Source: a bacterium (GTDB lineage Bacteria; Patescibacteriota; Minisyncoccia; UBA6257; UBA9933). From it: a stretch of 64,000 nucleotides of DNA. The DNA lies in NCBI GenBank assembly GCA_021796335.1, contig JAJYHZ010000002.1:192998-256997 (forward strand), given 5' to 3'. Of the stretch, positions 2,654-51,070 are shown piece by piece. The notes under the pieces were generated by a model that searched no databases, had not been told where the DNA came from, and saw only the letters and a list, made by a program, of their open reading frames with translations. Positions within the stretch are counted from its first letter, which is position 1. Each line of letters begins with the position of its first letter. The position numbers were made by a program, and so were the translations under genes.

Positions 2654-3892
2654 TTATTCATACCTTAGCGCTTCAATGGGGGATTTTTGAGCGGCCTGGC
2701 GGGCCGGGTAAAGTCCGAAAATCAAACCGATTATCCCGGAAACTAAAATTCCGATAACGGCTCCTGTTATCGGAAAACCGAAGACCCAGTCAACGGCAAG
2801 AAACTTGCTTAAAATTACCGAAATTAAAAACGAAAATCCCGTTCCCAATATTACGCCGATGATTCCGCCGATGCCGGTCAATAAAACGGACTCCAAAAGA
2901 AACTGGAATAAAATATTTTTTCCGGTGGCGCCAAGCGATTTGCGCAAGCCGATTTCGCGGGTGCGTTCGGTGACGGAAACAAGCATGATGTTCATAATTC
3001 CGATTCCGCCGACAACAAGGGAAATGGCGGCGACGGCCGTCAGGAAAAGGGTCAAAATGGTTGTGATTAAGCTTAGCCGTGAAGCGAGATCGGCCTGGGT
3101 TTCGATGCTGAAATCATCTTTGGAAGGATCGGTAATATTATGCGAATTTCTTAATGTGGTTGTAATATCGTCAACAGTGCGGTTGATGTCATTTTCCGAA
3201 TCCGCAGTTACGATAATGCGGTTGAAATAATTTATGCCGAACAAATAATTTTGGGCGGTGGTATAAGGAACGATTACGCTGTCGTCAAAATTAAAAAACG
3301 ATACCTGCCCTTTGGACGGCAGAACGCCGATGATTCTGAAATTCCTATTCTTGATTTTTATCGTTTCGCCCATCGGGTTGGAAGCGCCGAATAAGTTATC
3401 CTTGACTTTTGATCCGATGACCGCGACTTCGGAGTGGCTTTTTACGTCATCGTCGGTGAAAAAATTCCCCTGGCTGGGGTAAATGTCGAAAAACTGGGAA
3501 ATCAAATCGGTTGCTCCGAAAACTGTCGGCTGATCGGTATTACCCTGGTAATAAAGCGTTTCGGCGCCGATTACAACCGGCATGATTTGGCCGAGAGTGG
3601 GGACGTTATTTTTTTGCTGAAGAGCCGCAAGATCTTTTTCTTTAAGAGAATTGCTTAGTGTTTGGGCAAAATCGGACGGGGTTTTCGCCTGGCGGCCGGG
3701 AATTATGACGATTGTTTTCGAGCCCATTCCCTGGATTTGACTAAGGATTAAATCTTGGGCGCCCTGCCCGATGGACATAATCATGATAATGGAGGTAATG
3801 CCGATAACAATGCCGAGAACGGTTAAGGCGGATCGGGATTTATTTGTTTTTAATCCGGTAAAGGCGGTTTTAAAAGCGTGCTTTAGGGTCAT
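2654..3892 (-). CDS. ABC transporter permease, MacB/FtsX family with large extracytoplasmic domain
   Basis: N-terminal TM, ~250 aa periplasmic region, C-terminal FtsX-like 3 TM with GLYPARQAAQKSPIEALRYE tail; operon with ATPase. Confidence 0.75.
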   Translation of the reverse strand: MTLKHAFKTAFTGLKTNKSRSALTVLGIVIGITSIIMIMSIGQGAQDLILSQIQGMGSKTIVIIPGRQAKTPSDFAQTLSNSLKEKDLAALQQKNNVPTLGQIMPVVIGAETLYYQGNTDQPTVFGATDLISQFFDIYPSQGNFFTDDDVKSHSEVAVIGSKVKDNLFGASNPMGETIKIKNRNFRIIGVLPSKGQVSFFNFDDSVIVPYTTAQNYLFGINYFNRIIVTADSENDINRTVDDITTTLRNSHNITDPSKDDFSIETQADLASRLSLITTILTLFLTAVAAISLVVGGIGIMNIMLVSVTERTREIGLRKSLGATGKNILFQFLLESVLLTGIGGIIGVILGTGFSFLISVILSKFLAVDWVFGFPITGAVIGILVSGIIGLIFGLYPARQAAQKSPIEALRYE

Positions 3893-3955
3893 TTTGGAAT
3901 TTCTAATTACTCCAATGATTAATGATGATTCATTTTTTAGAATAATTAGGTTAAT

Positions 3956-4678
3956 TTATTTGAGCAGCTCCATGTCATTGGCTTTGCGGCGGTTTTTGAC
4001 GATGGAATCGCTTTCGATTTTACCGTCGAAGATTTTAATTATCCGTTGGGCATGCTCGGCGGTATGAGTTTCGTGGGTGATTAAAACTATAGTGCGACCT
4101 TGCTCTTCATTTAATTTTTGGAGAGTTTCCATGACTAAATGGCCCGACTGGGAATCCAAATTTCCGGTTGGTTCGTCGGCAAAGATAACTTCCGGATTAG
4201 TAATCAAGGCGCGGGCGATCGCGGTACGCTGCTGTTCGCCGCCGGAAAGGCGCGAAGGTTCGTGATTAACCCGGTGCGTCAATCCGACTTGTTCAATCGC
4301 TTTTTGCGCCAGCGTATTCCATTCGTTTTCCTTAATTTTAGAATACAGCAAGGGGAGTTTGACGTTTTCAGCCACGGTAGTGCGGGGGAGAAGGTTGAAA
4401 GCTTGAAAAATAAATCCCATTTTTTCATTCCGGATTCGGGCGATTTCGTCGTCGGAATAAGAATCGCTGATCTTGTCCTCAAAAAAATATTTTCCGGAAG
4501 TCGGCTTGTCTAAAAATCCCAAAATCTGGAGAAGGGTCGATTTGCCCGAACCGGACGGACCCATGATTGCGACGAATTCTCCTTTGTCGATCGAAAAAGA
4601 AACGCCGCGAAGCGCGTGAACTTCTCCTTCGCCGTACAGATAAGATTTGGCGATATTTTCGAGTTTGATGAAAGACAC
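3956..4678 (-). CDS. ABC transporter ATP-binding protein (MacB/LolD-type)
   Basis: Walker [10 protein letters not shown], signature [15 protein letters not shown], Walker [13 protein letters not shown]-loop. Confidence 0.9.
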
Positions 4679-4727: not shown

Positions 4728-6281
4728 CTATTGAGGAATGATCACTTTATCTCCCTCGTTTACTCCGCTAAGTATTTCTATATTTCCATCCGTGCTGCGC
4801 AATCCGGTTTTTACCTGAACGGTGCGGAATGATTTTCCATCCACGTTTAAAATTTCAACAGTTTTTTCTCCAGAATCGGAGATAACGGCCCGTTGCGGAA
4901 TTATTATCGCGTTTTTATGTTCGGCGGTTTTTATGTCGATGTTGGCGGTCATGCCGGATTTTATTTTATCCTCGTTATTTAGGAATTGCAGAGTGGTTTT
5001 ATAAGTCGTGACGCCTTCAACAATCGTTTCGGCGGGATCGATAGAAACAACCTTCGCCTTAAATATAACATTACTGCCGTAAGCATCCAGAGTAACGTCG
5101 GCAGGTTCGCCGACGGAAACCGCGGCGATATCGGTTTCGGGAATATCGGCATCGATTTCAAATTTAGAATCTGAGATCAGCGAAATAACGGGAGCACTGA
5201 GAGAAGAAATCTCGCCGATCTTCGAATTGACCTGAGTGACCAACCCGTCGAAAGGCGCGCGGATGTACGTGTTTTCAATCTGCGCTTCGTAATTATCTAT
5301 GTCGGCCTGAGCTTGCCTGACCAGAGCTTCTTGAGCGGCTATGTCTTGAGGAGTGCTGCCAGCTTTGTCCAAATCCAATTCATTTTGAGCGGTTTGGACT
5401 GCAAGTTTTTGGGCGGAAATCGATTGCGCCTGGTTATTCACTTCCGAAGCTGCGGCGTTAACATTGGTTAACCCCGTATTAACGGCGGTTTTGTAGCCGG
5501 ATAAATTCGTCGGCGATAATCCGATGGAATCGTTTAGAGCGACCAGAGCATCATTTAAAAAATCCCTGATATTCGAAAGGCTTTTTTCGGAATCAGCTAT
5601 AGCCGAATCAATATCGGCGGGTGAACTATTATTTTGGAGATTGGCAACTTCAGTCTGCCAAGCGTCGAATTTGGAATTAATGGTAATAAGGCTATTGATG
5701 ACGTTATTTGCGGGTTGCTGATCTTTTGTTGAAAAGGTCAGCTGAGGATTGAGCGTGCTGCCGTTTATAAAAATACCCGCAGTTTGGTTTCTGAGTGCAT
5801 CATTAGCCTTAGAAAATGCATCATTTAAGATATTGGGCGTGCCTGAATAGTAATTATTTAGAGCTTGTTGAGCTTGCGCTAGCTGGGATTCCTTTATTTG
5901 AATCTCTTCGGGACGCGTTCCCGCTTTTAATTGGTCCAGTTTGGCTTGTTGATTTTCAAGGGTGGCTTGGGCTTGTTCAAGCTGGGCTTTCAGGTCGTTG
6001 TTGTCGAGATTGGCCAGGATTTCACCGGCGGAAACGTGGTCTCCCACCGCAATCGCAATGCCGTTTATTCTGCCGACTTTAGCAAATCCCAAATCGGCGT
6101 TTTGAACCGGGCTGACATTTCCAGTCGCGCTAACCTCCTGGACAATATCGCCTTTATAGGCGGCTGCCGTCTGGAACGAAGAATTATTTTTTGAAGAGAA
6201 AGAAAGATAAGCGACGATTGCGACAATTACGACAACGCCGCTTATAAAAAACTTATTTTTGACGATATTCATAAATTTCAT
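4728..6281 (-). CDS. HlyD/MacA-family periplasmic adaptor subunit with extended coiled-coil
   Basis: N-terminal TM anchor, long Q/A-rich coiled-coil, C-terminal beta-barrel region; directly upstream of ABC ATPase/permease on same strand. Confidence 0.65.
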   Translation of the reverse strand: MKFMNIVKNKFFISGVVVIVAIVAYLSFSSKNNSSFQTAAAYKGDIVQEVSATGNVSPVQNADLGFAKVGRINGIAIAVGDHVSAGEILANLDNNDLKAQLEQAQATLENQQAKLDQLKAGTRPEEIQIKESQLAQAQQALNNYYSGTPNILNDAFSKANDALRNQTAGIFINGSTLNPQLTFSTKDQQPANNVINSLITINSKFDAWQTEVANLQNNSSPADIDSAIADSEKSLSNIRDFLNDALVALNDSIGLSPTNLSGYKTAVNTGLTNVNAAASEVNNQAQSISAQKLAVQTAQNELDLDKAGSTPQDIAAQEALVRQAQADIDNYEAQIENTYIRAPFDGLVTQVNSKIGEISSLSAPVISLISDSKFEIDADIPETDIAAVSVGEPADVTLDAYGSNVIFKAKVVSIDPAETIVEGVTTYKTTLQFLNNEDKIKSGMTANIDIKTAEHKNAIIIPQRAVISDSGEKTVEILNVDGKSFRTVQVKTGLRSTDGNIEILSGVNEGDKVIIPQ

Positions 6282-6608: not shown

Positions 6609-6679
6609 TTTCGGAGCGGCGGTTTGAAAAATAATTGGGCGCGATAAGCCCGAAGTTTATGTTTCTTTTATAAAATTCA

Positions 6680-11718: not shown

Positions 11719-12168
11719 ATGGGAAAGAAAGGCGATACAACAGAAGAAGTCCAAAAAGTCGAATGCTTTGCGGTTAATAATAATAAAAGCATTCCGTTTG
11801 CGGAATGCCTGAGAATGGGATCCGCCTATAAACGGAACCTGGACGTTTGTACGAAAAATAATTGCACGAGTTTTTGCAGATTATGCCCGACATGCATAAC
11901 AAACGGGCTTAAGGGCGACCTCATGGTGACTTATCCAAAGTATGTCGTTATCCCCGGGACGGGTCATTGTAAAGATCATCAAACTCCGGAGGAGAAAGCT
12001 CAGGCGACGTTTTACTGTCCGGAATATCGGACGGAAATATCGCGGGAGCGGTGCATAAACACAAGCGGGCATTCTGATCAAAATGGGAAATGCGCGGGGC
12101 ATGAATGCGAAAGCCCATGGCGCATATGTGTGGTTTGCGTTAAATTTCATTCATGCAAAACGGAATAG
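11719..12168 (+). CDS. cysteine-rich hypothetical protein
   Basis: 149 aa with ~20 Cys in CxxC-like spacing; overlaps next ORF in different frame. Confidence 0.35.
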   Translation: MGKKGDTTEEVQKVECFAVNNNKSIPFAECLRMGSAYKRNLDVCTKNNCTSFCRLCPTCITNGLKGDLMVTYPKYVVIPGTGHCKDHQTPEEKAQATFYCPEYRTEISRERCINTSGHSDQNGKCAGHECESPWRICVVCVKFHSCKTE

Positions 12169-12761
12169 GGGAAAGATGCGCCTGTAAGGACGCTGCAAGG
12201 GGAAAATGCGAAACGCATCTTAAAAGCCCTTGGGCTTCTCAGAACTGGACAATAGACGTCAGCAGGGAGGAGAAAAAAGATATGGGCGAAAAGAGTCTTC
12301 TGGGCAAAATCAGCGATGCCGTGGCTAAAGGAGATGGTCCGAGTAAGATTTCCAGAGATTTCGGCATAGATATTGCCACCGCATCGAAGTATAAAAAAAT
12401 AATAGATTCTGGGATTGCTCCTGTTAAGGACGCGCTAATAAAGGGCGACATCGGCCTTGCTGCGGCTGTGCTTCTTTCGAAGCAGCCAGGCGATGTTCAG
12501 AGTAAAGTAATAAATACTATTATCGAAAAGGCGTTGAAAGGGAAAAAGGCCGGAAGCTTTATAAAAAGTTTCATTAAAGGAAAAGGGAACGGAACCGATG
12601 ACGGCTGTAGCTGTAAGTCTGTCGCAATTCCTTCGCCGGACACTCTCTCAGCTTCATCGCCTTTACCGGAAAAAGGCGGGGGCATTGGAAAAATCTATTC
12701 TGAAGCCAGGAAGGTTATAATAGAAATTCCTGGCGGCATAAAAATAACAATTGAAAAGTAA
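12153..12761 (+). CDS. hypothetical protein with Cys-rich N-terminus and HTH-like segments
   Basis: ISRDFGIDIATASKYKK and IKGDIGLAAAVLL helix-turn-helix-like stretches; possible frameshifted continuation of 11719 ORF. Confidence 0.35.
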   Translation: MQNGIGERCACKDAARGKCETHLKSPWASQNWTIDVSREEKKDMGEKSLLGKISDAVAKGDGPSKISRDFGIDIATASKYKKIIDSGIAPVKDALIKGDIGLAAAVLLSKQPGDVQSKVINTIIEKALKGKKAGSFIKSFIKGKGNGTDDGCSCKSVAIPSPDTLSASSPLPEKGGGIGKIYSEARKVIIEIPGGIKITIEK

Positions 12762-12767
12762 GCCAGC

Positions 12768-12793
12768 GGGCGGCGGAAGCCGCCCCTTTTTTT
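12768..12793 (+). terminator. rho-independent terminator
   Basis: gggcggc-ggaa-gccgccc followed by cttttttt. Confidence 0.7.
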
Positions 12794-12828
12794 GGTTAAA
12801 AAAAGCGGAGAATTTCCCCGCTTCAGAG

Positions 12829-13065
12829 TTAATCTTCAAGCGTAATTATATTCTGCCATTCTTTATCCTCTGCCCTCTTTTCAAAATCCAAAGCATAAGC
12901 CTCGGATGTTTTGAAATATCTAAGCTTTTTGATAAAATAAAAGAAAAAAAACCTCTCATTTAAAGCAATCCAAAACAATATTGTCGCTATGGTAACTTTA
13001 GCAAATATCCAGAGACCGGAATTGATGACAAGAACTATCAATGGCAGGGTAAGGGCGTAAAACAT
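12829..13065 (-). CDS. small hypothetical membrane protein
   Basis: 78 aa, two predicted TM helices. Confidence 0.3.
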   Translation of the reverse strand: MFYALTLPLIVLVINSGLWIFAKVTIATILFWIALNERFFFFYFIKKLRYFKTSEAYALDFEKRAEDKEWQNIITLED

Positions 13066-13081
13066 TAAAGGGAAAGAATAT

Positions 13082-13432
13082 TTAAATATGATTTTTTTTC
13101 TTTAATGTTTTGTCCGGGAAATTAAAGTAAAAATCCCAGTGCCCGACTTCGTGCGCCAAGATCATTGTTATCTGCTCACGAAATTTTTCATTGAGATTGT
13201 TTAAATCCGGATTATTTATGTTGCAAATCCAAGCAATCGCCCAGATTTTCCAATTGTCGATTGTTATTATGTTTGAAAATAAGCTGAATGTTCCTAGGAC
13301 GGCGATTGGAGAAATCGATTTAAAAATTAATTCGGGCAAGGGATAGCTTCCCCTTTCCGCCATTAATTTTTTCAAGAGCTGTAAATTTAAATTGAATTTT
13401 GGCATTGGTGGAATTTCTCTGAATTTAAACAA
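13082..13432 (-). CDS. small HExxH-motif protein (possible ImmA/IrrE- or DUF45-like metallopeptidase remnant)
   Basis: ILAHEVGHWDF motif near C-terminus; 116 aa. Confidence 0.35.
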   Translation of the reverse strand: MFKFREIPPMPKFNLNLQLLKKLMAERGSYPLPELIFKSISPIAVLGTFSLFSNIITIDNWKIWAIAWICNINNPDLNNLNEKFREQITMILAHEVGHWDFYFNFPDKTLKKKNHI

Positions 13433-13559
13433 ATCATACCTCCCTTATTAAATTTTTATTTTCTAAAAGCATGGAATCAAAAGAAGGCCGCAAAGTCAAT
13501 AATATTATTTAATAAATAAGCTAGCGCTGTTCGGAAACCAGCAAAATAAAAAGGTTTTT

Positions 13560-13639
13560 GTCATACTGAGCGTAAGCGAAGCATCTCGCACCCTCAGAAA
13601 AACTCGATTCCTTCTCCGCCTTTGACGGATCAGAATGAC
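13560..13639. repeat. MITE-like dispersed repeat copy 1 (gtcatactga...ccgcctttgacggatcagaatgac; terminal inverted ends)
   Basis: related copies at 28216-28280, 49096-49158, 52455-52545; ends gtcatactga / tcagaatgac are inverted. Confidence 0.6.
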
Positions 13640-13761
13640 CGAGGGGAAGTTTCCGGGCAGAGGAATGACACTATCCAGAAATAAGCTTGACTTTATGAGC
13701 TAATAAGGTGTATTATTTATATAAAGAGAAATCCGCAGGTCGCGGGTTTTTTTAAAAAAAC

Positions 13762-13857
13762 AAATTTACACGAATGAGTAACGAATCTGCACGAATCACG
13801 AATATTGTTTATCGGTGATTCGTGAAAATTTGTTTTTAATTTGTGAGAATTCGTAAA
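13762..13857. promoter_or_regulatory. array of CACGAAT/CACAAAT heptamers in direct and inverted orientation immediately upstream of nusA
   Basis: acacgaat, aacgaat, cacgaat-cacgaat, then gtgattcgtg, atttgtt, atttgtg, attcgta; same word family flanks GxxExxY gene at 50609-50652/51024-51070. Confidence 0.5.
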
Positions 13858-13860
13858 TAG

Positions 13861-15057
13861 ATGTTGGATCTCAAATCACTTAACTGGGCGGTCAAACAAA
13901 TCGCGGAAGAAAAAGGATTGGCTGAAGACCAGGTGGCGGAAGCGGTGGAATCCGCGATTGCCGCAGCTTATAAAAAGGAATATTGCAAGAAGGGGGAAGT
14001 TGTAAAAGCGAAACTTGATTTAAAATCCGGTGATTTGAAATTCTGGAAAATCAAAACCGTTGTTGACGAATCAATGGTCAGAATTTTGACTGATGAAGAA
14101 GCGGCAGCTGAAGAGCCGCCCAAAGAAGGCGAAGAAAGACTGCCGCGGTATAATCCGGACAGGCATATTTTAATCGACGAGGCGAAAGCAACAGATCCGA
14201 ATGCAAATTTAGGAGATGAACTGCAATTTGAATTGGAAGTTCATCAGGATTTTGGAAGAATTGCTGCACAAACTGCTAAGCAGGTCATTTTGCAAAAAAT
14301 CCGTGAAGCGGAAAGAGACTCCATTAAAAAAGAATTCATTAATAAAGAAGGCGAGATAATCAGCGGCGTCATTCAGCGAATCGAAAGAGGAAATGTTTTT
14401 GTCGATCTCGGCCGCGCCATGGGAATCATGTTTTTCAACGAAGCGATTCCGGGAGAAAGATACAGAATTAGTGAAAGATTGAGATTTTATGTGGTGGCGG
14501 TTCAGGAAGAAGAAGGAAAGAGACCGGGAATTATTTTATCGCGTTCGCATCCGAACTTTGTTTCCAAGCTTTTTGAGCTGGAAGTTCCGGAAATTGCGGA
14601 AGGACTGGTGGAGATTAAAGCAATTGCGAGGGAAGCGGGAAACAGGACGAAAATTGCCGTGTTTTCTAAAGAAGAGGGAGTTGATCCTATAGGCGCTTGC
14701 GTCGGACAAAGGGGAACTCGCGTCATGGCGGTTACCAATGAGCTGGGAAACGAGAAAATCGATATTATCGAATGGCATGAAGATCCTGCTAAGTTTATTG
14801 CTGCGAGTTTGTCGCCGGCAAAAGTCATCAATGTCGATATTCTGCCGCGCCGGGAAGCGAAAGTTTTGGTCAACGACGATCAATTAAGTCTGGCAATCGG
14901 AAAAGACGGGCAAAACGCCAGATTGGCGGCAAAACTCACCGGATGGAAAATAGATATCCGCTCGCAGCAAAATCCGGATGCGGTTCAGGAAGGAGGAGTT
15001 TACGGGGAAGAAGCAGCCGGAAAGGATGATTCTGCTAAAGCCGAATCTGGAGAATAA
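13861..15057 (+). CDS. nusA: transcription termination/antitermination factor NusA
   Basis: N-terminal domain, S1 domain GEIISGVIQRIERGNVFVDLG, two KH domains with GxxG (GKDGQNARLAAKLTGWKIDI). Confidence 0.9.
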   Translation: MLDLKSLNWAVKQIAEEKGLAEDQVAEAVESAIAAAYKKEYCKKGEVVKAKLDLKSGDLKFWKIKTVVDESMVRILTDEEAAAEEPPKEGEERLPRYNPDRHILIDEAKATDPNANLGDELQFELEVHQDFGRIAAQTAKQVILQKIREAERDSIKKEFINKEGEIISGVIQRIERGNVFVDLGRAMGIMFFNEAIPGERYRISERLRFYVVAVQEEEGKRPGIILSRSHPNFVSKLFELEVPEIAEGLVEIKAIAREAGNRTKIAVFSKEEGVDPIGACVGQRGTRVMAVTNELGNEKIDIIEWHEDPAKFIAASLSPAKVINVDILPRREAKVLVNDDQLSLAIGKDGQNARLAAKLTGWKIDIRSQQNPDAVQEGGVYGEEAAGKDDSAKAESGE

Positions 15058-41748: not shown

Positions 41749-42981
41749 ATGAAAGAAGAATTTGTTCATAATAATAAATGTAAAAGTTGCGATGGTGTTA
41801 ATTTAGTGAAGTTTTTGGATTTGGGATCTATGCCTCCAGCCAATGCTTTTTTACCTAAAGATGAACTGAATAATGCCGAAGATAAATTTCCTTTGGCTGT
41901 TTATTTTTGTCAGGATTGTGCCATGGTCCAACTTTTGGATGTTGTTGACCAAGATATTCTTTTTGGCCGCTATAACTATTTAACATCAGCTAGTAAACCA
42001 TTGGTGGATCATTTTATCCAAATGGGGAATGAATTAGTAAATAAATTCATTAAATCCAGAGATGATTTAGTGGTTGAGATTGGAGGAAATGATGGGGTAT
42101 TAGTTGGTGCTATTAAAGATAAATGCAGAGTTTTAAATGTGGAACCTGCAAGCAATATTGCGGAAATTTCTAGAGAAAAGGGGATAGAGACCATTAATAA
42201 ATTTTTCAATAAAGATTTAGTGGAGGAAATTTTGAAGAAATATGGCAATGCTAAAGTTATTGTCGCCAATAATGTTATGGCTCATATAGATGATTTAAAG
42301 AGCGTATTTGAAGGCATAAAAATTTTAATTGGAGGGGATGGGGTTTTTGTGTTTGAAGTTCACTGGGTTGGTAATTTGTTGGGCGAAGGCGGATTTGATC
42401 AAATTTATCATGAGCATCTTTATTACCACTCTTTAATTTCTTTGAGGAATTTTGTAAAGCAATTTGGTTTGAATATTTTTGATATTGAAACGGTCCCTAT
42501 ACATGGCGAATCAATGCGAGTTTATGTAAGTAAAAATATGCCAATAAGTGAAAATGTTGAAAAATTTTTAACAAAGGAAAAACAACTCGGACTTGATAGA
42601 GCGGAAACATTTTTAAATTTTTCAAAAAAAGTTGAAGATAATAAAATAAGATTAAAATCGATTCTTAACGAATTAAAAAAAGAAAATAAAAAAATAATTG
42701 GCTATGGTGCGCCCGCAAAAGGCAATACATTACTTAATTATTTTGAAATAGACAGCACTATTTTAGGTTACATAATTGATACAACGCCTCTAAAACAAGG
42801 AATGTACACGCCTGGAACACATATTATCGTGAGTTCGCCAGATAGAATAAAAGAAGAATTACCGGATTACATTTTGCTTTTAGCTTGGAATTATGCAGAT
42901 GCTATTTTAAATAAAGAAAAAGAATTGCGAGAAAGAGGCGTGAAATTTATTATCCCCGTGCCTGAAGCAAAAATTGTGTAA
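41749..42981 (+). CDS. NDP-hexose C-methyltransferase-like (TylC3/Methyltransf_13+14 architecture) with N-terminal zinc ribbon
   Basis: CKSCDG...CQDCAM zinc-ribbon, class I MTase motif VVEIGGNDG, C-terminal domain typical of sugar C-methyltransferases; 410 aa. Confidence 0.55.
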   Translation: MKEEFVHNNKCKSCDGVNLVKFLDLGSMPPANAFLPKDELNNAEDKFPLAVYFCQDCAMVQLLDVVDQDILFGRYNYLTSASKPLVDHFIQMGNELVNKFIKSRDDLVVEIGGNDGVLVGAIKDKCRVLNVEPASNIAEISREKGIETINKFFNKDLVEEILKKYGNAKVIVANNVMAHIDDLKSVFEGIKILIGGDGVFVFEVHWVGNLLGEGGFDQIYHEHLYYHSLISLRNFVKQFGLNIFDIETVPIHGESMRVYVSKNMPISENVEKFLTKEKQLGLDRAETFLNFSKKVEDNKIRLKSILNELKKENKKIIGYGAPAKGNTLLNYFEIDSTILGYIIDTTPLKQGMYTPGTHIIVSSPDRIKEELPDYILLLAWNYADAILNKEKELRERGVKFIIPVPEAKIV

Positions 42982-43026
42982 TTTTTATCTATTGCTTCAA
43001 GCAAGATTTCTTTAACTATCATAATT

Positions 43027-43977
43027 ATGAAGAGTATTTGTAATATTTGTAAACATGACGATGCAAGGCTAATTTTTTATACAAAGGATAATCGTTATAA
43101 TCCAAAAAATAATAAAAAATTTCGTCTTATACAATGTCTTAACTGTGGGTTGGTTTATATAAATCCTTTACCGGATGATTCCGCTATTAAAGATTCTTAT
43201 GGATTTAATTATTTTAAATTAAAGGATGGATCTAAACCAAAAGGAAGAATAATTCAGATTTTAAAATTCATTAAAAAAAAATTCTCTCTAAACATTTATC
43301 CTACCTACAAATTTTATAGACTTAAAAATAAATTTTTCAGTAATAATTCCGGGAAATTTCTTGATGTCGGATGTGCTACGGGATTATTAGATGAATTTCT
43401 AATAAAAGAATTTCCTAGGTGGAAATTTTTCGGAATTGAGCCTAGTGAGGGAGCTTTTAAAAGAGCTTCACGAGTGAATGAATTTAAAGTTTTTAAAGGT
43501 GCTTTAGAAGACGCGAAATATCCATCCGATTATTTCGATATTATTTTAATAAATCAAGTTTTAGAACATGTTTATGATCCTGCCTCAGTAATAAATAAAT
43601 GTTCTCACATTTTAAAGTCGACCGGGAAATTAATTATTGCTGTCCCAGATTTTAATTCTTTCAGCTCTAAAATCTTTGGTAAATATTGGTATCATCTCGA
43701 TGTTCCCAGGCATTTATATCACTTTAATATAAAATCGTTAGAACTGATCCTTGAAAGGAATGGATTTCTTATTCAGAAGAAAGAGAAAGAATCTTTACCC
43801 GGATCTTTTGTAAAAAGCATTTTTCTTTTATTCGGTTCAAACCCTGATTCATTAGATAGTTCGTATGCATGGGTTGCAGTTAAAATTTTATTTAACCCTA
43901 TTTTAAATTTTTTGAATATCTTATTTGAAAAATTTGGTATTTCCAATGGAATTTTTATTATTGCAATAAAGAATTAA
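43027..43977 (+). CDS. class I SAM-dependent methyltransferase with N-terminal Cys4 zinc ribbon
   Basis: CNICKHD...CLNCGLVY, motif I FLDVGCATG, Methyltransf_11/23-like. Confidence 0.6.
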   Translation: MKSICNICKHDDARLIFYTKDNRYNPKNNKKFRLIQCLNCGLVYINPLPDDSAIKDSYGFNYFKLKDGSKPKGRIIQILKFIKKKFSLNIYPTYKFYRLKNKFFSNNSGKFLDVGCATGLLDEFLIKEFPRWKFFGIEPSEGAFKRASRVNEFKVFKGALEDAKYPSDYFDIILINQVLEHVYDPASVINKCSHILKSTGKLIIAVPDFNSFSSKIFGKYWYHLDVPRHLYHFNIKSLELILERNGFLIQKKEKESLPGSFVKSIFLLFGSNPDSLDSSYAWVAVKILFNPILNFLNILFEKFGISNGIFIIAIKN

Positions 43978-43979
43978 TT

Positions 43980-44915
43980 ATGCCTAAAGTTTTTATTCTG
44001 ATTTTACATTGGCAAAAATATGATATTACGAGGGAATGTCTAGAATCATTTAAAAAATTAGATTATCCAAATTATAAGATTGTGGTTTTAGACAATGCAT
44101 CATCTAATGATTCGGCGCGCAGATTAGAACAAGAATTTCCACAGAACTTATTTATTTTCAATAAAGAAAACAAAGGCTATGGGGCGGGTATGAATCCAGG
44201 AATAAAATATGCTTTGGATAACGGTGCAGATTATATTTTTCTTTTAAATAACGATGTCATTGTTAGCAAAAATGATTTTTTAGTTAGACTGATTAACTTG
44301 ATGGAAAGTAATAAAAAGGTCGGTATTGCTGGCCCTAAATTATTATTTAGAGATATGACATATCAAAGATCTTATAGAAATTATTTCTTTTCCATAGCTC
44401 TTGGATTCTGGGCACCTGAAAAAGTGTTTATTTTTTTTAGAAAGATATTTGGCATACTTCCAAAAGACAATATTACTCACAAAGTTGATTGGCTAAATGC
44501 TGTTGCTTTGTTATTTAAAAGAGAAGTGTTTGAAAAAATTGGTTTGATGGATGAAAGATTTTTTTTGGGCGCTGAAGATGTCGATTTATCATTAAGCGCT
44601 AAAAATAAAGGATGGGAGACTTGGTATTGTGCTGAGTCAGAGTTAGTGCACTTAAGTTTTGTCAGTCACGACAATGAAGGCGGTGCCGGATATGATAAAT
44701 ATTGGATAGAGAGTACAATATTATTTTTAGAAAAACATTACTCTAAGATTACAGTTTTCGTAATAAGATTTTTAATTGTTTTAGGTTTATTTTTGAGAGG
44801 GCTGCAGTGGTCAATTCTTGGATTATTTAATCAATCTTATTTTTTAAGAGCAAAAAATTTTTTTAGAATAAGCTACTTTTCATTGATTATTAGACCTAGA
44901 TTTGCCAATAAATGA
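43980..44915 (+). CDS. family 2 glycosyltransferase
   Basis: VVLDNASSNDS, DYIFLLNNDV (DxD) GT-A motifs. Confidence 0.7.
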   Translation: MPKVFILILHWQKYDITRECLESFKKLDYPNYKIVVLDNASSNDSARRLEQEFPQNLFIFNKENKGYGAGMNPGIKYALDNGADYIFLLNNDVIVSKNDFLVRLINLMESNKKVGIAGPKLLFRDMTYQRSYRNYFFSIALGFWAPEKVFIFFRKIFGILPKDNITHKVDWLNAVALLFKREVFEKIGLMDERFFLGAEDVDLSLSAKNKGWETWYCAESELVHLSFVSHDNEGGAGYDKYWIESTILFLEKHYSKITVFVIRFLIVLGLFLRGLQWSILGLFNQSYFLRAKNFFRISYFSLIIRPRFANK

Positions 44916-45814
44916 TTATGAATCCTTTAGTATCTATATTGGTTTTAAATTGGAATAATTTTGATGACACTAATAATTGTGTGACTTCATTATTATCACT
45001 AAATTATAACAATTTTAATATTTTAATTATTGATAATGGTTCTACCGACAATTCTTTTATAAGACTAAAAAATAAATTCCGCGATGAGAGAATCATTTTT
45101 TTAAAAAATAAAGAAAATTTTGGTTATGCTGGAGGTATAAATATAGGCATAAAGTATGTTTTTGAAAAATTATCTTCCGATTTCATTTGGATTCTAAATA
45201 ACGATATTATGGTTGATAAAGATTCTTTAAAATTTTTAATCGATGCTGTAAATAAAAATAAGAAAATTGGTATTGCTGGTCCAACGATTTATTTGGCTGG
45301 AACTAAAAAAATAATGGAACAATATTATCGTTTAAATTTACTTTTTGGACGTTTTTTGGTTAAAACCAATCTTAATGAGAATGAAGTAGTTAAAATAGAA
45401 AATAAAAAAAATAATTACATAGGAGGAGCCGCTGTTTTTTTACGAAAGGAAATTCTAAATAAAATTGGCTATATTCCCGAAGAATATTTTATGTATAATG
45501 AGGATATAGCATGGCATCAAAAAATAAAAAATACTCAATTAGAATATTTATATGTTGGTCCAGCAAAGGTATGGCATAAAAAAGGCGCTTCTAGCGGTGG
45601 GAAAAAAACTATAATGCCTGATTATTATGACTCCAGAAATTTTCTTTATTTTATAAAAAAATTTTATCCGCTTTGGTTGCCTTATGAATTTTTTATGTCA
45701 ATTATTAATAAGGTCTTTCCCAAAGTGTTAAGAGGAGAATGGGAAAGACTCAGATATGTTTTTATGGGATTTAGAGACTTTGCAAAAGGTAAAATGGGAA
45801 AATTCGAAAATTAA
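44912..45814 (+). CDS. family 2 glycosyltransferase
   Basis: ILIIDNGSTDNS, FIWILNNDIMVD GT-A motifs. Confidence 0.7.
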   Translation: MIMNPLVSILVLNWNNFDDTNNCVTSLLSLNYNNFNILIIDNGSTDNSFIRLKNKFRDERIIFLKNKENFGYAGGINIGIKYVFEKLSSDFIWILNNDIMVDKDSLKFLIDAVNKNKKIGIAGPTIYLAGTKKIMEQYYRLNLLFGRFLVKTNLNENEVVKIENKKNNYIGGAAVFLRKEILNKIGYIPEEYFMYNEDIAWHQKIKNTQLEYLYVGPAKVWHKKGASSGGKKTIMPDYYDSRNFLYFIKKFYPLWLPYEFFMSIINKVFPKVLRGEWERLRYVFMGFRDFAKGKMGKFEN

Positions 45815-45816
45815 CT

Positions 45817-46614
45817 ATGCCAAAGGTTTCGATAATAACCCCCTTTTATAAAGGAGAAAAATATATTGGTAGGGCTATTGAAAGTATTTTAAATCAAAAT
45901 TATAAAGATTTTGAATATCTTATCGTTGATGATGGGTCAAAAACTAATTTTAATAATTATCTAACTAATAAATATGGAGGCAAAATTATTTATATAGAAA
46001 AAAGCAATGGTGGTCAGGCTTCGGCAGTAAATGTTGGGATAAAAAAAGCAAGGGGGGAATTTATTGCTTTCTGTGATCAAGATGATTGGTATTTGGATGA
46101 TAAATTATTAAAACAAGTCAATTTTTTAAAAAGCCATCCCGAAATTGCTATGGTTTATTCTGATGTCTTAATGGGAGATGAGAATGGTAAAATACTTGAT
46201 AAAACATGGATGCAATCTAGAAAAGTACGATTTTGCAGTGGAGGTTATGCCGATTGTGCGGCCAAATTATTTAAAAGGAATTTTATTCCCGCACCTTTGG
46301 CAGTTATGATTAGGAAATCTATTTTTGATCAAATAGGTTTATTTAATGAAAAATTTTCTAGCGCTTATGATTATGATTTTTGGTTTAGAATTCTAGAAGC
46401 CGGAATGCGTATTGGGAATATGGAAAATAAGTCAGCTGTTTGGAGAACTCATAGCGGCCAAGAAAGCAGGAATATAAAAAAGGCTAAAATAATGCAAATT
46501 GGAATTTTAAGAAGTTTTTTAAAGAGAAATCCAAAATTTGTATTAAACCACCCATTTTTAACTGCCTATAAAATCGTAAAATCATATATCGCTTTAATAT
46601 TCAGTTTGATATGA
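45817..46614 (+). CDS. family 2 glycosyltransferase
   Basis: VSIITPFYKGEKYIGRAIESILNQ, LIVDDGS, FCDQDD. Confidence 0.7.
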   Translation: MPKVSIITPFYKGEKYIGRAIESILNQNYKDFEYLIVDDGSKTNFNNYLTNKYGGKIIYIEKSNGGQASAVNVGIKKARGEFIAFCDQDDWYLDDKLLKQVNFLKSHPEIAMVYSDVLMGDENGKILDKTWMQSRKVRFCSGGYADCAAKLFKRNFIPAPLAVMIRKSIFDQIGLFNEKFSSAYDYDFWFRILEAGMRIGNMENKSAVWRTHSGQESRNIKKAKIMQIGILRSFLKRNPKFVLNHPFLTAYKIVKSYIALIFSLI

Positions 46615-46686
46615 ATCTATGTTTAAAAAAAAGTATATAAATTTAATAAGGAAATTTGTTGGCAATATAGAAAGAGAAAGAGTGGG

Positions 46687-47832
46687 GTGGCAGAAAAATT
46701 TATTTTAATAAATATGAGGATAGGAATTAATTTAATTCAATATAGGGGATTACATGGTATTGAGGCTTTTGCTCGAGAAATTATCGAAAAATTGATTTTA
46801 TTGGATAAAGATGATGAATTCATCCTTTTTACGAATCAAAATTCTTCAGTTATTTTTAAATTTAGTGGTTCAAATGTAAAAATAATTGAAGAAAAATTTA
46901 AAAATTTTTCTAGATTTAATTTAATTTTATATCAACAAATCTTGTTGCCTCGGATACTAAAAAGAGAAAAAATTGATTTGCTTTATTGCCCATCTGTAGC
47001 TATGCCAATTTTTTATAAAAATAAAATTGTTACTATCCATGATTGTGCAGCTTTTAAATTCAAGAACGAGGTGGGGTTCTCATCAAGAATTTATCTTAAA
47101 ATGGCATTTTGGTCCGCTAAAAATTTTAGTAAAAAAATTGTAACAATTTCCGAATTTTCAAAAAATGAGTTGATAAATGATTATAAAGTTAATCCAGATT
47201 TAATTAGTGTTATCTCTGAAGGAGTTGCGCGAATTCCAGACGTTTCTCTGGATTTTATTGAAAAAACAAAAGAAAAATTTAAAATAGAAAATCCATATTT
47301 TTTTTATTTAGGAAACATTCATTATCGAAAAAATTTAATTGGTTTGTTGGAATCTTTTAAAAAATTTAAAGAAAATCATAACGAATTTTATTTGGTTTTT
47401 GGAGGAAGGATAAATAGTTGTTTTATTAATATTCGGGAAGAAGCGAAGAGATTAAATATTAGTAATAGTTTAATTCAGACGGGGTTTATTTCAGATGAAG
47501 AAAAAGTGGCATTATATAAAGGTGCAATCGCCCATGTCTTTCCTTCTTTTTATGAGGGATTTGGACTTTCTATTTTGGAGGCACAGTCTTTGGGTGTCCC
47601 GGTTTTGACTTCAAACATAACTTCAATGCCGGAAGTGGCTGGGAAAGGGGCCTTATTTGTTAACCCTTATAGTATAGAGGAAATTGCAAGTGGTTTGGAA
47701 GAAATCGTTTTTAATAAAGAATTGAGAAAAAAAATAATAAATAGAGGATTTGAAAATGTAAAAAGATTTTCTTGGGAATTTACTGCAAGGAAAATGATTA
47801 ACATTTTTGAAATTTTTAATAATTACGAATGA
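46687..47832 (+). CDS. family 4 (GT-B) glycosyltransferase
   Basis: C-terminal EGFGLSILEAQSLGVPVLTSN motif. Confidence 0.75.
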   Translation: MAEKFILINMRIGINLIQYRGLHGIEAFAREIIEKLILLDKDDEFILFTNQNSSVIFKFSGSNVKIIEEKFKNFSRFNLILYQQILLPRILKREKIDLLYCPSVAMPIFYKNKIVTIHDCAAFKFKNEVGFSSRIYLKMAFWSAKNFSKKIVTISEFSKNELINDYKVNPDLISVISEGVARIPDVSLDFIEKTKEKFKIENPYFFYLGNIHYRKNLIGLLESFKKFKENHNEFYLVFGGRINSCFINIREEAKRLNISNSLIQTGFISDEEKVALYKGAIAHVFPSFYEGFGLSILEAQSLGVPVLTSNITSMPEVAGKGALFVNPYSIEEIASGLEEIVFNKELRKKIINRGFENVKRFSWEFTARKMINIFEIFNNYE

Positions 47833-47867
47833 ATTCGATAGTTTAATTTCGTTTCAAATAAAAATAA

Positions 47868-49088
47868 ATGTCAATGCTTAAAAAATATAAAAAATTATTT
47901 CAAAAGTTTTTGGGGAATATTTATAGAAAAAGTTTGGAATGGCAACGTAATCTAATTAAGGCATTGAAGTTTTTTTATTTATTGGCAATGTTTCCGATTG
48001 AAATAGTCGGGGATATTTTATTTTTAGGGAAAAGGTTTAAAAAAGGGAAGATACATAATCCTAAGAGAATTTTAATCGTAAAAATCGACCAGTTTGGGGA
48101 TGTTCTTTTTTCGACCTTTATGTTGCCCTTGATTAAAGAAAAATATCCGGAGGCGCAAATAGATTACCTTATAAATCCGAAAACGGAATTTGTCATTAAA
48201 AATAATCCCCATATTTCCAATATTTATTATTGGGAAGATCCATTTTTGCATTTTCTTTTGGGCAGAGAAAAAAGCAATAAGCCGCCGATTTGGAAAATTT
48301 TAAAAAGGGATTTTGATTTGGTTAAAACAATAAGAAAAGAAAATTACGATGCGGTTATAAATACACGCGCTTATTCCCCCAGCACGAATATTTTTTGGAA
48401 ATTATTAAGGCCGAAAAATTTAATCGCTTTTGACATTGCGGAACAAAGCTTTTTGGCGGATTTTTGGGTTGATTACGATTTATATGACGAAGAATGGAGG
48501 AATTATTTAAATCTGTTGTTGCCTTTGGGAATAAATAAAAGTAAGGCAGAATTTAAACCGGGATTCTTTAATTTTAATGAAAAAGAATTTATGGAAAAAC
48601 TTCCCGGGTTAAATAAAAAATTTATTGTGATTTCGCCAGTTTCTTTTGACAAAGAAAGGAATTGGCCAGTGGAAAGATGGAAAGAGGTTATTGATTTTTT
48701 AACAGAAAGAAATTATCAAGTGGTTTTAACGGGGCTTAAATCGCAGGAAAATTATCTTTTAAGTATTTCTGCGGCAGTTGCTTCGCCAAATCTATTTATC
48801 ATTTCAGATATTTCAATTCCGGGATTGGGCAGTGTTTTTAACAATGCCGAATTTTTTATTGGAATTGATTCTTTTCCAGCTCATTTAGCCTTGGCTCTAA
48901 ATAAACCAATAATTTGTTTTGTTAACGAGCAAATTTATTTTCTAAAGAACTTTTCTCAAAAGAAATTTTATATGGACGCGAGGTGTATGATCCCTTTAGT
49001 TGATAAGGTAAAAATTGTTCCAACAACAAATAGCACAAGCGAATATGTTATTTCGTTGGCAGAGGAGTTGATTGGCGGGGAGATGTAA
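47868..49088 (+). CDS. family 9 glycosyltransferase (heptosyltransferase-like)
   Basis: ILIVKIDQFGDVLFSTFMLPLIKEKYPEAQIDYL N-terminus and C-terminal GIDSFPAHLA motif typical of GT9. Confidence 0.6.
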   Translation: MSMLKKYKKLFQKFLGNIYRKSLEWQRNLIKALKFFYLLAMFPIEIVGDILFLGKRFKKGKIHNPKRILIVKIDQFGDVLFSTFMLPLIKEKYPEAQIDYLINPKTEFVIKNNPHISNIYYWEDPFLHFLLGREKSNKPPIWKILKRDFDLVKTIRKENYDAVINTRAYSPSTNIFWKLLRPKNLIAFDIAEQSFLADFWVDYDLYDEEWRNYLNLLLPLGINKSKAEFKPGFFNFNEKEFMEKLPGLNKKFIVISPVSFDKERNWPVERWKEVIDFLTERNYQVVLTGLKSQENYLLSISAAVASPNLFIISDISIPGLGSVFNNAEFFIGIDSFPAHLALALNKPIICFVNEQIYFLKNFSQKKFYMDARCMIPLVDKVKIVPTTNSTSEYVISLAEELIGGEM

Positions 49089-49175: not shown

Positions 49176-50627
49176 TTATTGTCTTTGCAGGATGATGTTT
49201 TTAATATCAATCGCGGTTTCTTCTTTTAAAATAATCAGAGAGACAATATAAGCCAGAGCGGAGGAGATTATTATCAGGAGGACATTGATGTTGAGGTTTA
49301 ATAGCCCTTCGATAAAGCCGACCATAACAGCCGAGGCGATAATTGTTTTTGTAAAACTGCTAATAACTCTAAACTGAAGGTGTTTTTTAAGACTGAAGTA
49401 TAGATACAGGGTTATTATGATTGTGTTTATAAGCGAAGCCAAAGCAGATCCGGCAATGCCAAATGGAGGTATGAGCAAAATATCAAAAAACAGATTTCCG
49501 AAAATTCCAAGAGCCGCATAAATAAGCAATTGACGCTCTTTTCTAAGGGCAAATAATTGATTGCCAAGCGCATTGGACATAAAGGTGGGAATAAACATCA
49601 GGCTCATTATCATAAAAGTGATTGTGGCCGGAATATACCGGTATCCGAATAATAAAACGATAATTTTTTGCGATAATAAAATTCCGCCAATTGTTAAGGG
49701 GAGGGCTAAAATTATCATCAGTGCCAAACTTTTTTCAACTATTTTTACCAGCCTTTCTTTTTGGTCGGCTAATTTCGCGGTTTGGGGGAAAAGGGCAACG
49801 GTTATCATGGCAGGCACAATAAAAATAATTTGGGTTATTCTTAATGGCGCGGAGTAGTAGCCTACCTCGGTGATGCTTTTTAACCAAGCAATCATAAGGT
49901 TGTCCGTGTTGAGCATTACTGTTCCCATAACAGCCAGAATTCCCATGGGCCAGCTGGAATAAAGAAGGGTTTTTATTATGCTTTTCGAAAAAGTTTTTTT
50001 GACGTTTTTGAGATAACGGCGGAACGGATAGAATGCGCTTATCATGCCCAGTCCTGTTCCAAGCACATATCCAAGAGAAAGAGCTTTCGGGGTTTTGGAA
50101 TAATAAAGGGCGAGAAAACCGCCGGCGACAATAAAGACATTGGTGATAATTTGAACAACAGCTTCGATCTCCATTTTTTCCCAGGCGCGGGCAAGAGAGG
50201 CGCCAAAATCCCTCAAGCTGTCAAAGGCGACAATTAGAATAACTATCGGCATCAAGTCGGCGACGGCTTTATCTTTAAAGAGAAGAGGAGACAAAACAAT
50301 TACTGAGATGGAGATGAGGGCGAGCATTATCAGTTTTATAACTAAGGCGGTGGAAAAATATTTTTCCTGGATAGAAAGATCCTTGCTGGATTCGCGGACA
50401 ATGGTCGCGTTTAATCCGAAATCGGCGAAGGTTGTGAAAAATCCGGCTAAACTTAAGGCATAAGAAAAAGCGCCGTATCCGTTAACGCTGAGGACGCGAG
50501 CGGCATAAACGATGATGGCCAGCTTGATAAGCTTTGAAAAAATCTGGCCGAAAAACAGCCAAAAGGTATTTTTGGCGACAGTCTGGCGGGCGGTTTTATT
50601 TTTGAATAAGAATTCACGAATATTCAC
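49176..50627 (-). CDS. wzx: Wzx-type polysaccharide flippase (MOP superfamily)
   Basis: 12-14 TM helices, polysacc_synt-like N-terminus; GTG start inferred. Confidence 0.7.
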   Translation of the reverse strand: MNIREFLFKNKTARQTVAKNTFWLFFGQIFSKLIKLAIIVYAARVLSVNGYGAFSYALSLAGFFTTFADFGLNATIVRESSKDLSIQEKYFSTALVIKLIMLALISISVIVLSPLLFKDKAVADLMPIVILIVAFDSLRDFGASLARAWEKMEIEAVVQIITNVFIVAGGFLALYYSKTPKALSLGYVLGTGLGMISAFYPFRRYLKNVKKTFSKSIIKTLLYSSWPMGILAVMGTVMLNTDNLMIAWLKSITEVGYYSAPLRITQIIFIVPAMITVALFPQTAKLADQKERLVKIVEKSLALMIILALPLTIGGILLSQKIIVLLFGYRYIPATITFMIMSLMFIPTFMSNALGNQLFALRKERQLLIYAALGIFGNLFFDILLIPPFGIAGSALASLINTIIITLYLYFSLKKHLQFRVISSFTKTIIASAVMVGFIEGLLNLNINVLLIIISSALAYIVSLIILKEETAIDIKNIILQRQ

Positions 50628-50652
50628 AAATTAAACACAAATTTCACAAATG
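50609..50652. promoter_or_regulatory. heptamer array (cacgaat, cacaaat x3) overlapping wzx start and GxxExxY stop
   Basis: gaattcacgaatattcacaaattaaacacaaatttcacaaatg; ~85% identical to reverse complement of nusA-upstream array. Confidence 0.5.
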
Positions 50653-51045
50653 CTAATTAAGCACTCTTCGAAATTCAAGCTTGTTATGTTTGAAATTAGC
50701 AATAATTCCCAATTTTAATCCTGTAGCTTCTAAATATCGTAGAACTTGCTTTATGTCATTTTGACTTATTTTCCAAATAACTTTTGTTTCCAATAAGATT
50801 TGATTATTTATTATAAAATCAGCAAAAAATTCACCCAACTCTTCATCTTCAAATTTTGTTTTTATCTGAACTTCTTTTTTATCGAGAAGACTATATTTCC
50901 CCAGTTTTATAGCAATGGCTTTTTGATAATGTTTTTCTTGGTATTTATTTCCCAGCTTATTATGCACTTCAAATAGAATTCCCATTAGTTTATAACTTAA
51001 TTCTGGATAAATAAGTTTTTCTTTATTCGTGATATTCGTGATCAT
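50653..51045 (-). CDS. GxxExxY-family protein (predicted PD-(D/E)xK nuclease fold)
   Basis: YPELSYKLMGILFEVHNKLGNKYQEKHYQKAIAIKL carries the GxxExxY signature (GILFEVHNKLGNKY). Confidence 0.7.
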   Translation of the reverse strand: MITNITNKEKLIYPELSYKLMGILFEVHNKLGNKYQEKHYQKAIAIKLGKYSLLDKKEVQIKTKFEDEELGEFFADFIINNQILLETKVIWKISQNDIKQVLRYLEATGLKLGIIANFKHNKLEFRRVLN

Positions 51046-51070
51046 TTGTGTAAATTTGTGCGTAAATTAT
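51024..51070. promoter_or_regulatory. heptamer array (attcgtg x2, atttgtg x2, cgtaaat) overlapping GxxExxY start
   Basis: ttattcgtgatattcgtgatcatttgtgtaaatttgtgcgtaaatt. Confidence 0.5.

Follow-up and report, generated by a model that had tools for sequence, protein, structure and literature searches.

Intervening sequences of bacterial 23S rRNA, as in Coxiella burnetii, Leptospira and Salmonella, are small selfish inserts whose inverted repeats pair in the transcript and which occur with or without a small open reading frame (ORF), the documented case being those encoding S23p four-helix-bundle proteins. GxxExxY proteins, which are very common small proteins of unknown role, have also been described as products of intervening-sequence ORFs. 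To our knowledge, no origin or means of movement has been established for bacterial rRNA intervening sequences since their discovery. In the Coxiella 23S rRNA insert, the ORF is preceded by tandem heptamers (GACAGAT), RNase III cuts at the first repeat, and the origin and mobility of such inserts are still open questions (PMC4990558). Here we describe a comparable arrangement in a 64,000-nucleotide stretch of a Patescibacteria genome (contig JAJYHZ010000002.1; hereafter the window), in which a palindromic array of heptamers stands directly before nusA and a full element, carrying a GxxExxY gene between two such arrays, lies 37 kb away. The nusA array is probably a gene-less, non-autonomous member of a selfish cassette family bounded by inverted (C/T/A)AC(G/A/T)AAT arrays, with its gene-bearing sibling at positions 50615-51060, and it is located in the nusA 5′ untranslated region (UTR).

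The nusA array forms a 97-base palindrome (13759-13855) of nine heptamers with the sequence (C/A/T)AC(G/A)AAT, five direct and four inverted, mostly at 10-11 bp spacing. The parts of this array and of its gene-bearing sibling are as follows.

13759-13803, + strand: left arm of the nusA array, five direct heptamers (AACAAAT at 13759, CACGAAT at 13769, AACGAAT at 13780, CACGAAT at 13790, CACGAAT at 13797), start-to-start spacing 10, 11, 10 and 7
13804-13817, + strand: 14-nt centre, ATTGTTTATCGGTG, the apical loop region of the predicted hairpin
13818-13855, − strand: right arm, four inverted heptamers (read on the + strand, ATTCGTG at 13818, ATTTGTT at 13828, ATTTGTG at 13839, ATTCGTA at 13849), spacing 10, 11 and 10
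13861-15057, + strand: nusA, with its ATG at 13861 (TIGR01953, 382.6 bits)
50615-50651, + strand: 3′ array of the gene-bearing sibling, CACGAAT, CACAAAT, CACAAAT, CACAAAT on the + strand
50653-51045, − strand: GxxExxY gene, 130 amino acids, PD-(D/E)xK nuclease fold, the sole protein encoded by the full element
51025-51060, − strand: 5′ array of the gene-bearing sibling, CACAAAT, CACAAAT, CACGAAT, CACGAAT in the gene sense

A preliminary description of this DNA had reported four copies of cacgaat before nusA. Four ACGAAT words are indeed present, but CACGAAT itself occurs only three times and the fourth copy is AACGAAT; a fifth direct copy, AACAAAT, lies just 5′ of the interval given there. The inverted copies that it listed, namely GTGATTCGTG (13815-13824, at the junction of centre and right arm), atttgtt, atttgtg and attcgta, were all located at 13815-13855. 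The spacer lengths are mirrored, with 3-4-3 on both arms, and the array ends 5 nt before the nusA ATG. Only 14 nt separate the arms, where the gene-bearing element has a 373-bp gene body. The array encloses no GxxExxY gene (TIGR04256 / PF13366), which makes it a gene-less derivative or shell. Its arms are inverted with CAC outward, in the same layout as the element at 50615-51060 and as 20 GxxExxY loci fetched from other genomes (L001-L020).

By analogy, the nusA array appears to resemble both a miniature inverted-repeat transposable element (MITE) and an rRNA intervening sequence, and the latter seems to be the nearest known thing. As in Coxiella, heptamers are found just before the ORF of the gene-bearing element. 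The terminal inverted repeats of the nusA array also pair in the predicted transcript (−32.6 kcal/mol, z −4.7). In contrast, neither the window nor any of the 20 fetched GxxExxY loci contains rRNA, and the nusA copy resides in a 5′ UTR rather than in helix 9, 25 or 45 of 23S rRNA. Moreover, the heptamers described here are 9-11 bp apart whereas those of Coxiella are contiguous, and their sequences differ.

The preliminary description had allowed that the heptamers might simply be at background frequency for an AT-rich genome. This is true of their overall counts in the window (10 CACGAAT versus 7.4 expected; 14 CACAAAT versus 12.1 expected), but not of their clustering. On both strands, ACRAAT hexamers occur 127 times in 64 kb, and nine of these fall within a single 100-bp segment at nusA, compared with 0.2 expected per 100 bp (Poisson expectation over all segments, 7e-8) and with a maximum of four per 100 bp in 300 block shuffles. 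The k-mer scan that had been proposed for the genome, run here on the 64-kb window, returned only three heptamer clusters: the one in the nusA leader and the two that flank the GxxExxY gene (50616-50651 and 51025-51060). Across the fetched loci (555 kb), there are 50 arrays versus about 0.2 in shuffles. Chance clustering of AT-rich words, to which the background heptamer counts lend some weight, is thus refuted by the Poisson expectation, by the shuffles and by the alignment statistics given below, and we regard its probability as negligible.

The two elements of the window match arm by arm. The reverse complement of the right arm (13818-13855) aligns with 50615-50651 at 32 of 37 positions with one gap, which bears out the match of about 85% to the left flank of the GxxExxY gene that had been claimed. 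The segment originally compared scores 27, while random 60-mers from the window have a mean score of 7.9 (sd 1.9) and a maximum of 18. This corresponds to a z of about 10, and the concern that the similarity might vanish under a significance test can be set aside. In a match that the preliminary description did not contain, the left arm (13759-13803) aligns with the reverse complement of 51025-51060, likewise at 32 of 37 positions. Corresponding arms score 25 and 26, compared with 12 and 17 for the swapped pairings and 17-18 for an arm against its own partner. Because each arm best matches its corresponding arm, the nusA array and the GxxExxY element are homologous as whole two-armed elements. 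The arms are in the same order, and the GxxExxY sense direction of the nusA copy runs with nusA. The nusA arms are also closer to the GxxExxY arms of the same genome than to those of 12 other GxxExxY loci (scores 9-24) or to the arrays in relatives' nusA leaders (7-21; 21 and 13 for the nearest relative), a pattern that would fit exchange between copies within the genome. An earlier suggestion that the array is a solo relic of the same element is therefore sustained in that it is a cargo-less copy with both arms homologous and with order and orientation kept. The word relic may understate the case, however, since the palindrome is well kept and its position is common in related leaders.

In the gene-bearing sibling, the last two heptamers of the 5′ array encode ITNITN at the protein N-terminus. 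The best homologue of the encoded protein carries the name Wolfebacteria. A sequence search for a solved structure gave no match, and among phage and defence libraries there was no match in PHROG and one faint nuclease-domain match only in PADLOC.

To place these elements in a wider family, one genome per species was scanned with the homologue alignment, which yielded the 20 fetched loci from Patescibacteria, WOR-3, Stahlbacteria and other bins. The 20 distinct loci that were tabulated comprise 19 of these and the window copy. All 20 carry 2-8 heptamers at or just 5′ of the start codon and 3-6 inverted heptamers just 3′ of the stop codon. Start-to-start spacing peaks at 10 (47 cases), 11 (32) and 9 (18), in a tally that counts two near-duplicate pairs twice (L009 with L008, and L017 with L016). 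The consensus heptamer has C at position 1 (or T or A, never G), followed by AC, a degenerate centre base and AAT. The centre base is G in 45% of copies, A in 29% and T in 24%, under a scan pattern that excluded C, and the heptamer flanks are AT-rich and not conserved. Usually the GxxExxY start codon falls within the 5′ array. As ACGAAT encodes Thr-Asn, the conserved N-terminus MxTNxTNK is no more than the heptamers read in frame. We define the family operationally by at least three copies per arm of (C/T/A)AC(G/A/T)AAT at 9-11 bp spacing, with arms inverted and CAC outward, and the nusA array, with five plus four copies, is of this type in spacing and copy number. The cassette family is widespread in bacteria and spread across phyla. 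It is undescribed in the literature searched, where no paper on these heptamers or on GxxExxY flanks was found and where the Coxiella intervening-sequence heptamers are the sole related report. PF13366 was listed with function 'unknown' in a 2012 superfamily survey.

The gene-bearing copy is a discrete insertion when its site is compared with those of two relatives. In both relatives (L213 and L214), the gene order is DsbA-like, sugar transferase and flippase, as in the window, and the transferase and flippase genes are 24 bp apart or overlap, with no array. The same interval of the window is occupied by about 446 bp of arrays and gene. The window flippase lacks its first seven codons (MIKKxKS in the relatives), and the cassette stands in their place (50600-50660 versus L213 3860-3990 and L214 4320-4440; also 51045-51070). 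The only in-frame flippase start found is a GTG at 50627, within the outer heptamers of the 3′ array, which gives V/M-NIRE-FLFKNKT.

For the nusA copy, the centre offers a possible trace of the missing gene. It includes an 8/9 match, TTGTTTATC versus TTATTTATC, to codons 11-13 of the GxxExxY gene. This match is weak, with a shuffle p of 0.02 against the 5′ 45 nt and of 0.34 against the whole gene, and an internal-deletion origin of the centre was rejected on these values. As a separate observation, a 14-codon ORF, MSNESARITNIVYR, spans the left arm and the centre at 13774-13818, and its ITN-IVY is similar to ITN...LIY in the N-terminus of GxxExxY. This ORF could be the trace of an internal deletion, or a product of chance (p about 0.02).

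Gene-less arrays are not confined to nusA. A single 9.8-kb contig of Saccharibacteria (L014) carries them upstream of pth, rplA and rplJ and after rplL, at 3189-3211, 3877-3958, 5010-5075 and 6641-6667. In these copies, one arm reads CACTAAT and the other ATTCGTG, and their centre bases are unable to pair. The rplA and rplJ leaders among these sites belong to the L11 and L10 ribosomal protein operons, whose leaders are classic cases of regulation.

Viral contigs were scanned with the pattern CACGAAT-N2-4-CACRAAT-N2-4-CACRAAT, and at least 120 loci (L093-L212) contain it, compared with about one expected by chance on a rough estimate. Among the matches listed, palindromes with three heptamers on each side lie between viral genes in L094, L105, L170, L182 (twice), L191 and L208 (twice), and many other viral arrays are lone direct triplets right before start codons. 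Arrays also stand on both sides of whole viral genes, including DNA methylases (L099, 5849-6667; L206, 815-2114) and a radical SAM gene (L140, 7351-8368). A variant heptamer, ATCCGTG, co-occurs in viral contigs. A few of the viral matches are unrelated, being 9-bp repeats within coding sequence of giant-virus bins, and a search of cultured phages gave no informative matches. Examples of the viral palindromes are given below.

L094, 2269-2331: palindrome with three heptamers on each side
L182, 2676-2742 and 5350-5416: two palindromes of the same form
L208, 1186-1282 and 2935-3055: two palindromes of the same form

Such arrays are unexpectedly abundant around accessory genes of uncultivated phages, which points to a cassette system of wider scope.

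These observations bear on a different reading, in which palindromic arrays exist independently, a GxxExxY homing-type nuclease gene invades their centres, and the nusA array is a site that has not been invaded. Arrays are far commoner than the gene, as illustrated by the 120 or more viral loci, and gene-less arrays occur in several housekeeping leaders. Where the gene is present, it invariably fills the interval between the two arms, usually with its start codon within the 5′ arm, and its predicted fold is a nuclease fold. Set against these points, the centre of the nusA array bears a weak trace of 5′ codons from the GxxExxY gene. In addition, at the sole empty allele that could be examined, that of L213 and L214, the relatives have no array of any kind, so the arrays and the GxxExxY gene arrived together at the flippase site. 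We therefore consider this reading unlikely.

The position of the nusA array within its leader is relevant to whether it could serve as an operator. The features that precede the array in the window and the arrays found in relatives are as follows.

13687-13716, + strand: sigma-70-like promoter, TTGACT-18-TATTAT, 10/12 consensus matches
13725-13757, + strand: leader hairpin and U-run, AAAUCCGC-loop-GCGGGUUUUUUU, terminator- or attenuator-like, directly 5′ of the array
L027/L031 nusA leader: TACGAAT twice, facing ATTAGTA three times
L029 nusA leader: CACAAAT, CACGAAT, TACGAAT, CACAAAT and an inner hairpin
L030 nusA leader: TACGAAA repeats facing TTTCGTA
L033/L034 nusA leaders: repeats of the ATCCAAAC and CTACAAAC types
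L025 and L026 nusA leaders: a different repeat, CAACAAC facing GTTGTAG
L040 (distant) nusA leader: TACAAAT four times, 110 bp, then ATTTGTA four times

The array starts 43 nt past the −10 box and also past the leader hairpin. Since the predicted promoter lies upstream, the array is within the transcribed nusA 5′ UTR. An equivalent promoter (TTGACA...TATACT) occurs at the same position in L025, L026, L027, L029, L030 and L032, and the same leader hairpin occurs in L026, L027, L029, L030, L032 and L033, whether or not an array follows. In close relatives, NusA is 69-78% identical, the gene order yebC-ruvC-nusA is shared, and the leader consists of a consensus promoter followed by a hairpin of the form AAUCCGC-loop-GCGG(G/A)UUUU; NusA is identical in Patescibacteria assembly GCA_021836325.1. 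Arrays are present in the leaders of L025, L026, L027/L031, L029, L030, L033/L034 and L040, and absent from those of L032, L036, L037 and L041, in which the ATG follows within about 11-36 nt of the leader hairpin. Because it is absent or different in relatives' leaders, the array is dispensable for nusA and is turning over. The hairpin of the array is not a terminator in the sense of a GC-rich stem with a U-run, being followed by AAAUAGAUG, and the terminator-like hairpin of this leader is the separate one at 13725-13757.

Two observations on these leaders stand apart from the question of the array. In the nusA leaders of this Patescibacteria clade (13687-13757 in the window; L025-L033), the promoter is followed at once by the AAUCCGC-loop-GCGGGUUUU hairpin. 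This hairpin is a candidate attenuator that would depend on NusA and allow it to regulate its own expression, separately from the heptamer array. Also, L026 (2420-2495) and L025 (2410-2495) hold a palindromic array of the contiguous heptamer CAACAAC/ACCAAC facing GTTGTAG/GGTTGT, which suggests a second repeat family with the same architecture.

The preliminary description had offered, as an alternative to the relic, a shared operator or iteron array for a DNA-binding protein that also controls nusA, in other words a host regulator acting on both nusA and the GxxExxY gene. The heptamers do resemble OmpR/PhoB-type operators and plasmid iterons in having 6-7 bp repeats, 10-11 bp from centre to centre, with variable spacers. 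This phasing would align the sites along the same side of the helix, the motif is kept despite variable spacers and a variable centre base, arrays are enriched in nusA leaders, and lone direct triplets occur just upstream of viral genes. However, operator sites overlap or lie just upstream of a promoter, and this array lies downstream of both the promoter and the leader hairpin, inside the 5′ UTR. Some close relatives have nusA genes without it. At GxxExxY genes, half of the sites are inverted and located 3′ of the stop codon, giving two inverted arrays where known operators and iterons have no such layout. The motif is common to several phyla and to phages, in which it bounds unrelated genes, unlike the site of a lineage-specific regulator, and no regulator or replication gene is linked to it. 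The idea of protein recognition fits these data, but control of nusA through a shared operator is improbable.

A further possibility is that the array is a leader RNA that arose in place, a hairpin of the nusA 5′ UTR selected for its fold as an RNase III site or for translational control, and that its resemblance to the GxxExxY element is coincidental. In E. coli, RNase III cleaves the metY-nusA leader. The sense transcript (13757-13866) is predicted to form a four-helix bulged hairpin with the strong folding energy given above, the spacer lengths are mirrored, and two G-U pairs form on the sense strand. The position is also kept in several relatives while the repeat sequence differs, which looks like covariation at the level of the array. 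On the other hand, the homology of 86% to an element 37 kb away holds arm by arm and includes the spacers. Sense-strand G-U pairs show no surplus over A-C mismatches (11 versus 12 in leader copies; 33 versus 20 in GxxExxY elements), and the antisense strand folds about as well (z −5.5). The array is missing from four of the relatives' leaders, as noted above, and in Rfam 15 the nusA array has no match at gathering score, microRNA-precursor-like hairpins reaching at most 25 bits versus cut-offs of 72-130. A known RNA family was accordingly rejected, with none at gathering or E-value threshold. We judge the leader-RNA explanation to be quite unlikely.

More generally, a purely structural RNA reading is not favoured, given the lack of a G-U excess, the equal folding of the antisense strand and arms that are barely partner-specific. 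Own arms pair only slightly better than the arms of other elements (permutation p 0.019, a difference due to divergent motif variants), the array spacers are not complementary, and lone arms occur in L014 and in viral contigs. The conserved object is a heptamer motif phased at about one helical turn, which points to protein recognition, and the hairpin is a consequence of the inverted layout of the arms. The heptamers may thus be protein-recognition units rather than just the halves of a hairpin.

Several other classes of element share features with the proposed cassette. MITEs such as the Correia elements of Neisseria are short and non-coding, have inverted ends matching a coding element of the same genome, occupy intergenic or 5′ UTR positions where they are co-transcribed with their neighbours, and show presence or absence at orthologous sites, as seen here for the nusA leaders of L032, L036, L037 and L041 and for L213 and L214. 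Correia hairpins are RNase III substrates. Unlike MITEs, the elements described here have no target-site duplication that we could find, their ends are arrays of degenerate heptamers rather than one continuous terminal repeat, and their partner gene encodes a 130-amino-acid PD-(D/E)xK protein and not a known transposase. Repetitive extragenic palindromic (REP) sequences and their REPIN doublets, together with the RAYT gene, offer another parallel, with a single-copy gene flanked by inverted short repeats and gene-less palindromic doublets in intergenic regions. This likeness suggests mobilisation or maintenance in trans by the product of the flanked gene. However, RAYTs are tyrosine (HUH) transposases of the IS200/IS605 type, in contrast to the PD-(D/E)xK fold of PF13366, and REPs are single palindromes of 20-40 nt instead of phased heptamer arrays. 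Finally, free-standing homing endonuclease genes of the PD-(D/E)xK type, such as I-Ssp6803I, are likewise small nuclease genes that fit exactly between neighbouring host genes and leave next to no untranslated sequence; relatives lack them at that site, and they are spread across phyla. Their sites, however, are normally unique host sequences that the insert splits, whereas the insert described here brings its own inverted arrays, and its nuclease activity is predicted.

If the nusA array is indeed a gene-less cassette, the heptamers would be the cis sites by which the cassette is recognized, and the reader acting in trans would most plausibly be the predicted GxxExxY nuclease. We infer that this protein might cut at or near the arrays and thereby lead to copying or gene conversion between copies. 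The array would be transcribed with nusA, and its inverted arms would let the transcript fold into a long hairpin with bulges. Judging from 23S rRNA intervening sequences, RNase III is likely to act on this hairpin, and the hairpin may affect how stable the nusA mRNA is or how well it is translated. Expression of nusA may be influenced by the array. The regular occurrence of a nuclease-fold gene between two arrays, together with gene-less copies, provides a concrete and testable pair of a protein and a defined DNA or RNA site. Should the arrays be processing or binding sites, they would touch the expression of nusA and of ribosomal protein operons in Patescibacteria, where gene regulation is almost unexplored.

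A broader proposal, which we advance only tentatively, is that phased CAC-N-AAT arrays and the GxxExxY protein constitute an unrecognized, cross-phylum class of mobile cassettes, in which the protein would recognize the heptamers and bring about copying from array to array or gene conversion between them. This class would include rRNA intervening sequences as a special case, copies without a gene in leaders of core genes for transcription and translation (nusA, rplA, rplJ) and array-bounded phage accessory genes such as DNA methylases, and cassettes would be exchanged between phages and bacteria. If true, this would supply rRNA intervening sequences with a means of movement, something that has been lacking for 30 years.

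A number of observations weigh against the view of the nusA array as a gene-less mobile cassette. Target-site duplications were not seen at 13759/13855 or at 50615/51060, in a comparison with relatives too diverged for exact junctions. Four other assemblies of the same organism are identical at the nusA array, giving no strain polymorphism. Only one gene-less copy and one full copy are present within the 64 kb examined, and because these are 86% identical, transfer between them is not recent. The left arm scores 21 against the leader array of the nearest relative (L029), and on the basis of this similarity the nusA array may be old and maintained. Arrays are held by 8 of 12 sampled nusA leaders, compared with about 2 of approximately 60 other intergenic gaps in the same loci. 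Such enrichment is not predicted by random insertion and hints at a function or a target preference. Targeting of terminator hairpins was considered as the source of this preference and rejected, because GxxExxY elements elsewhere have no terminator-like hairpins adjacent to them, these being found only in nusA leaders. Lastly, no GxxExxY gene lies within about 5 kb of viral arrays in the matches listed, and for this reason the GxxExxY protein may not be the heptamer reader.

Additional observations concern the surroundings of the elements. The window has an overall GC content of about 38%. The polysaccharide gene cluster in which the GxxExxY cassette sits has, immediately upstream, a 6-kb stretch (42000-48000) of 28-30% GC, compared with about 38-40% elsewhere. 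This stretch may have been acquired as a block by horizontal transfer. Near nusA, the ruvC-nusA gap is 170-600 bp in relatives, and the window has an extra block of about 2 kb (11719-13686). This block contains four small ORFs without a family match (11719-12168, 12153-12761, and 12829-13065 and 13082-13432 on the − strand) as well as 250 bp of partly GC-rich non-coding DNA (13433-13686), and the sequence breaks off 361-397 bp upstream of nusA in two further assemblies of this organism. In L016, a group II intron domain match (RF00029, 41.5 bits) is located at 64-138, on the same contig as a divergent GxxExxY cassette.

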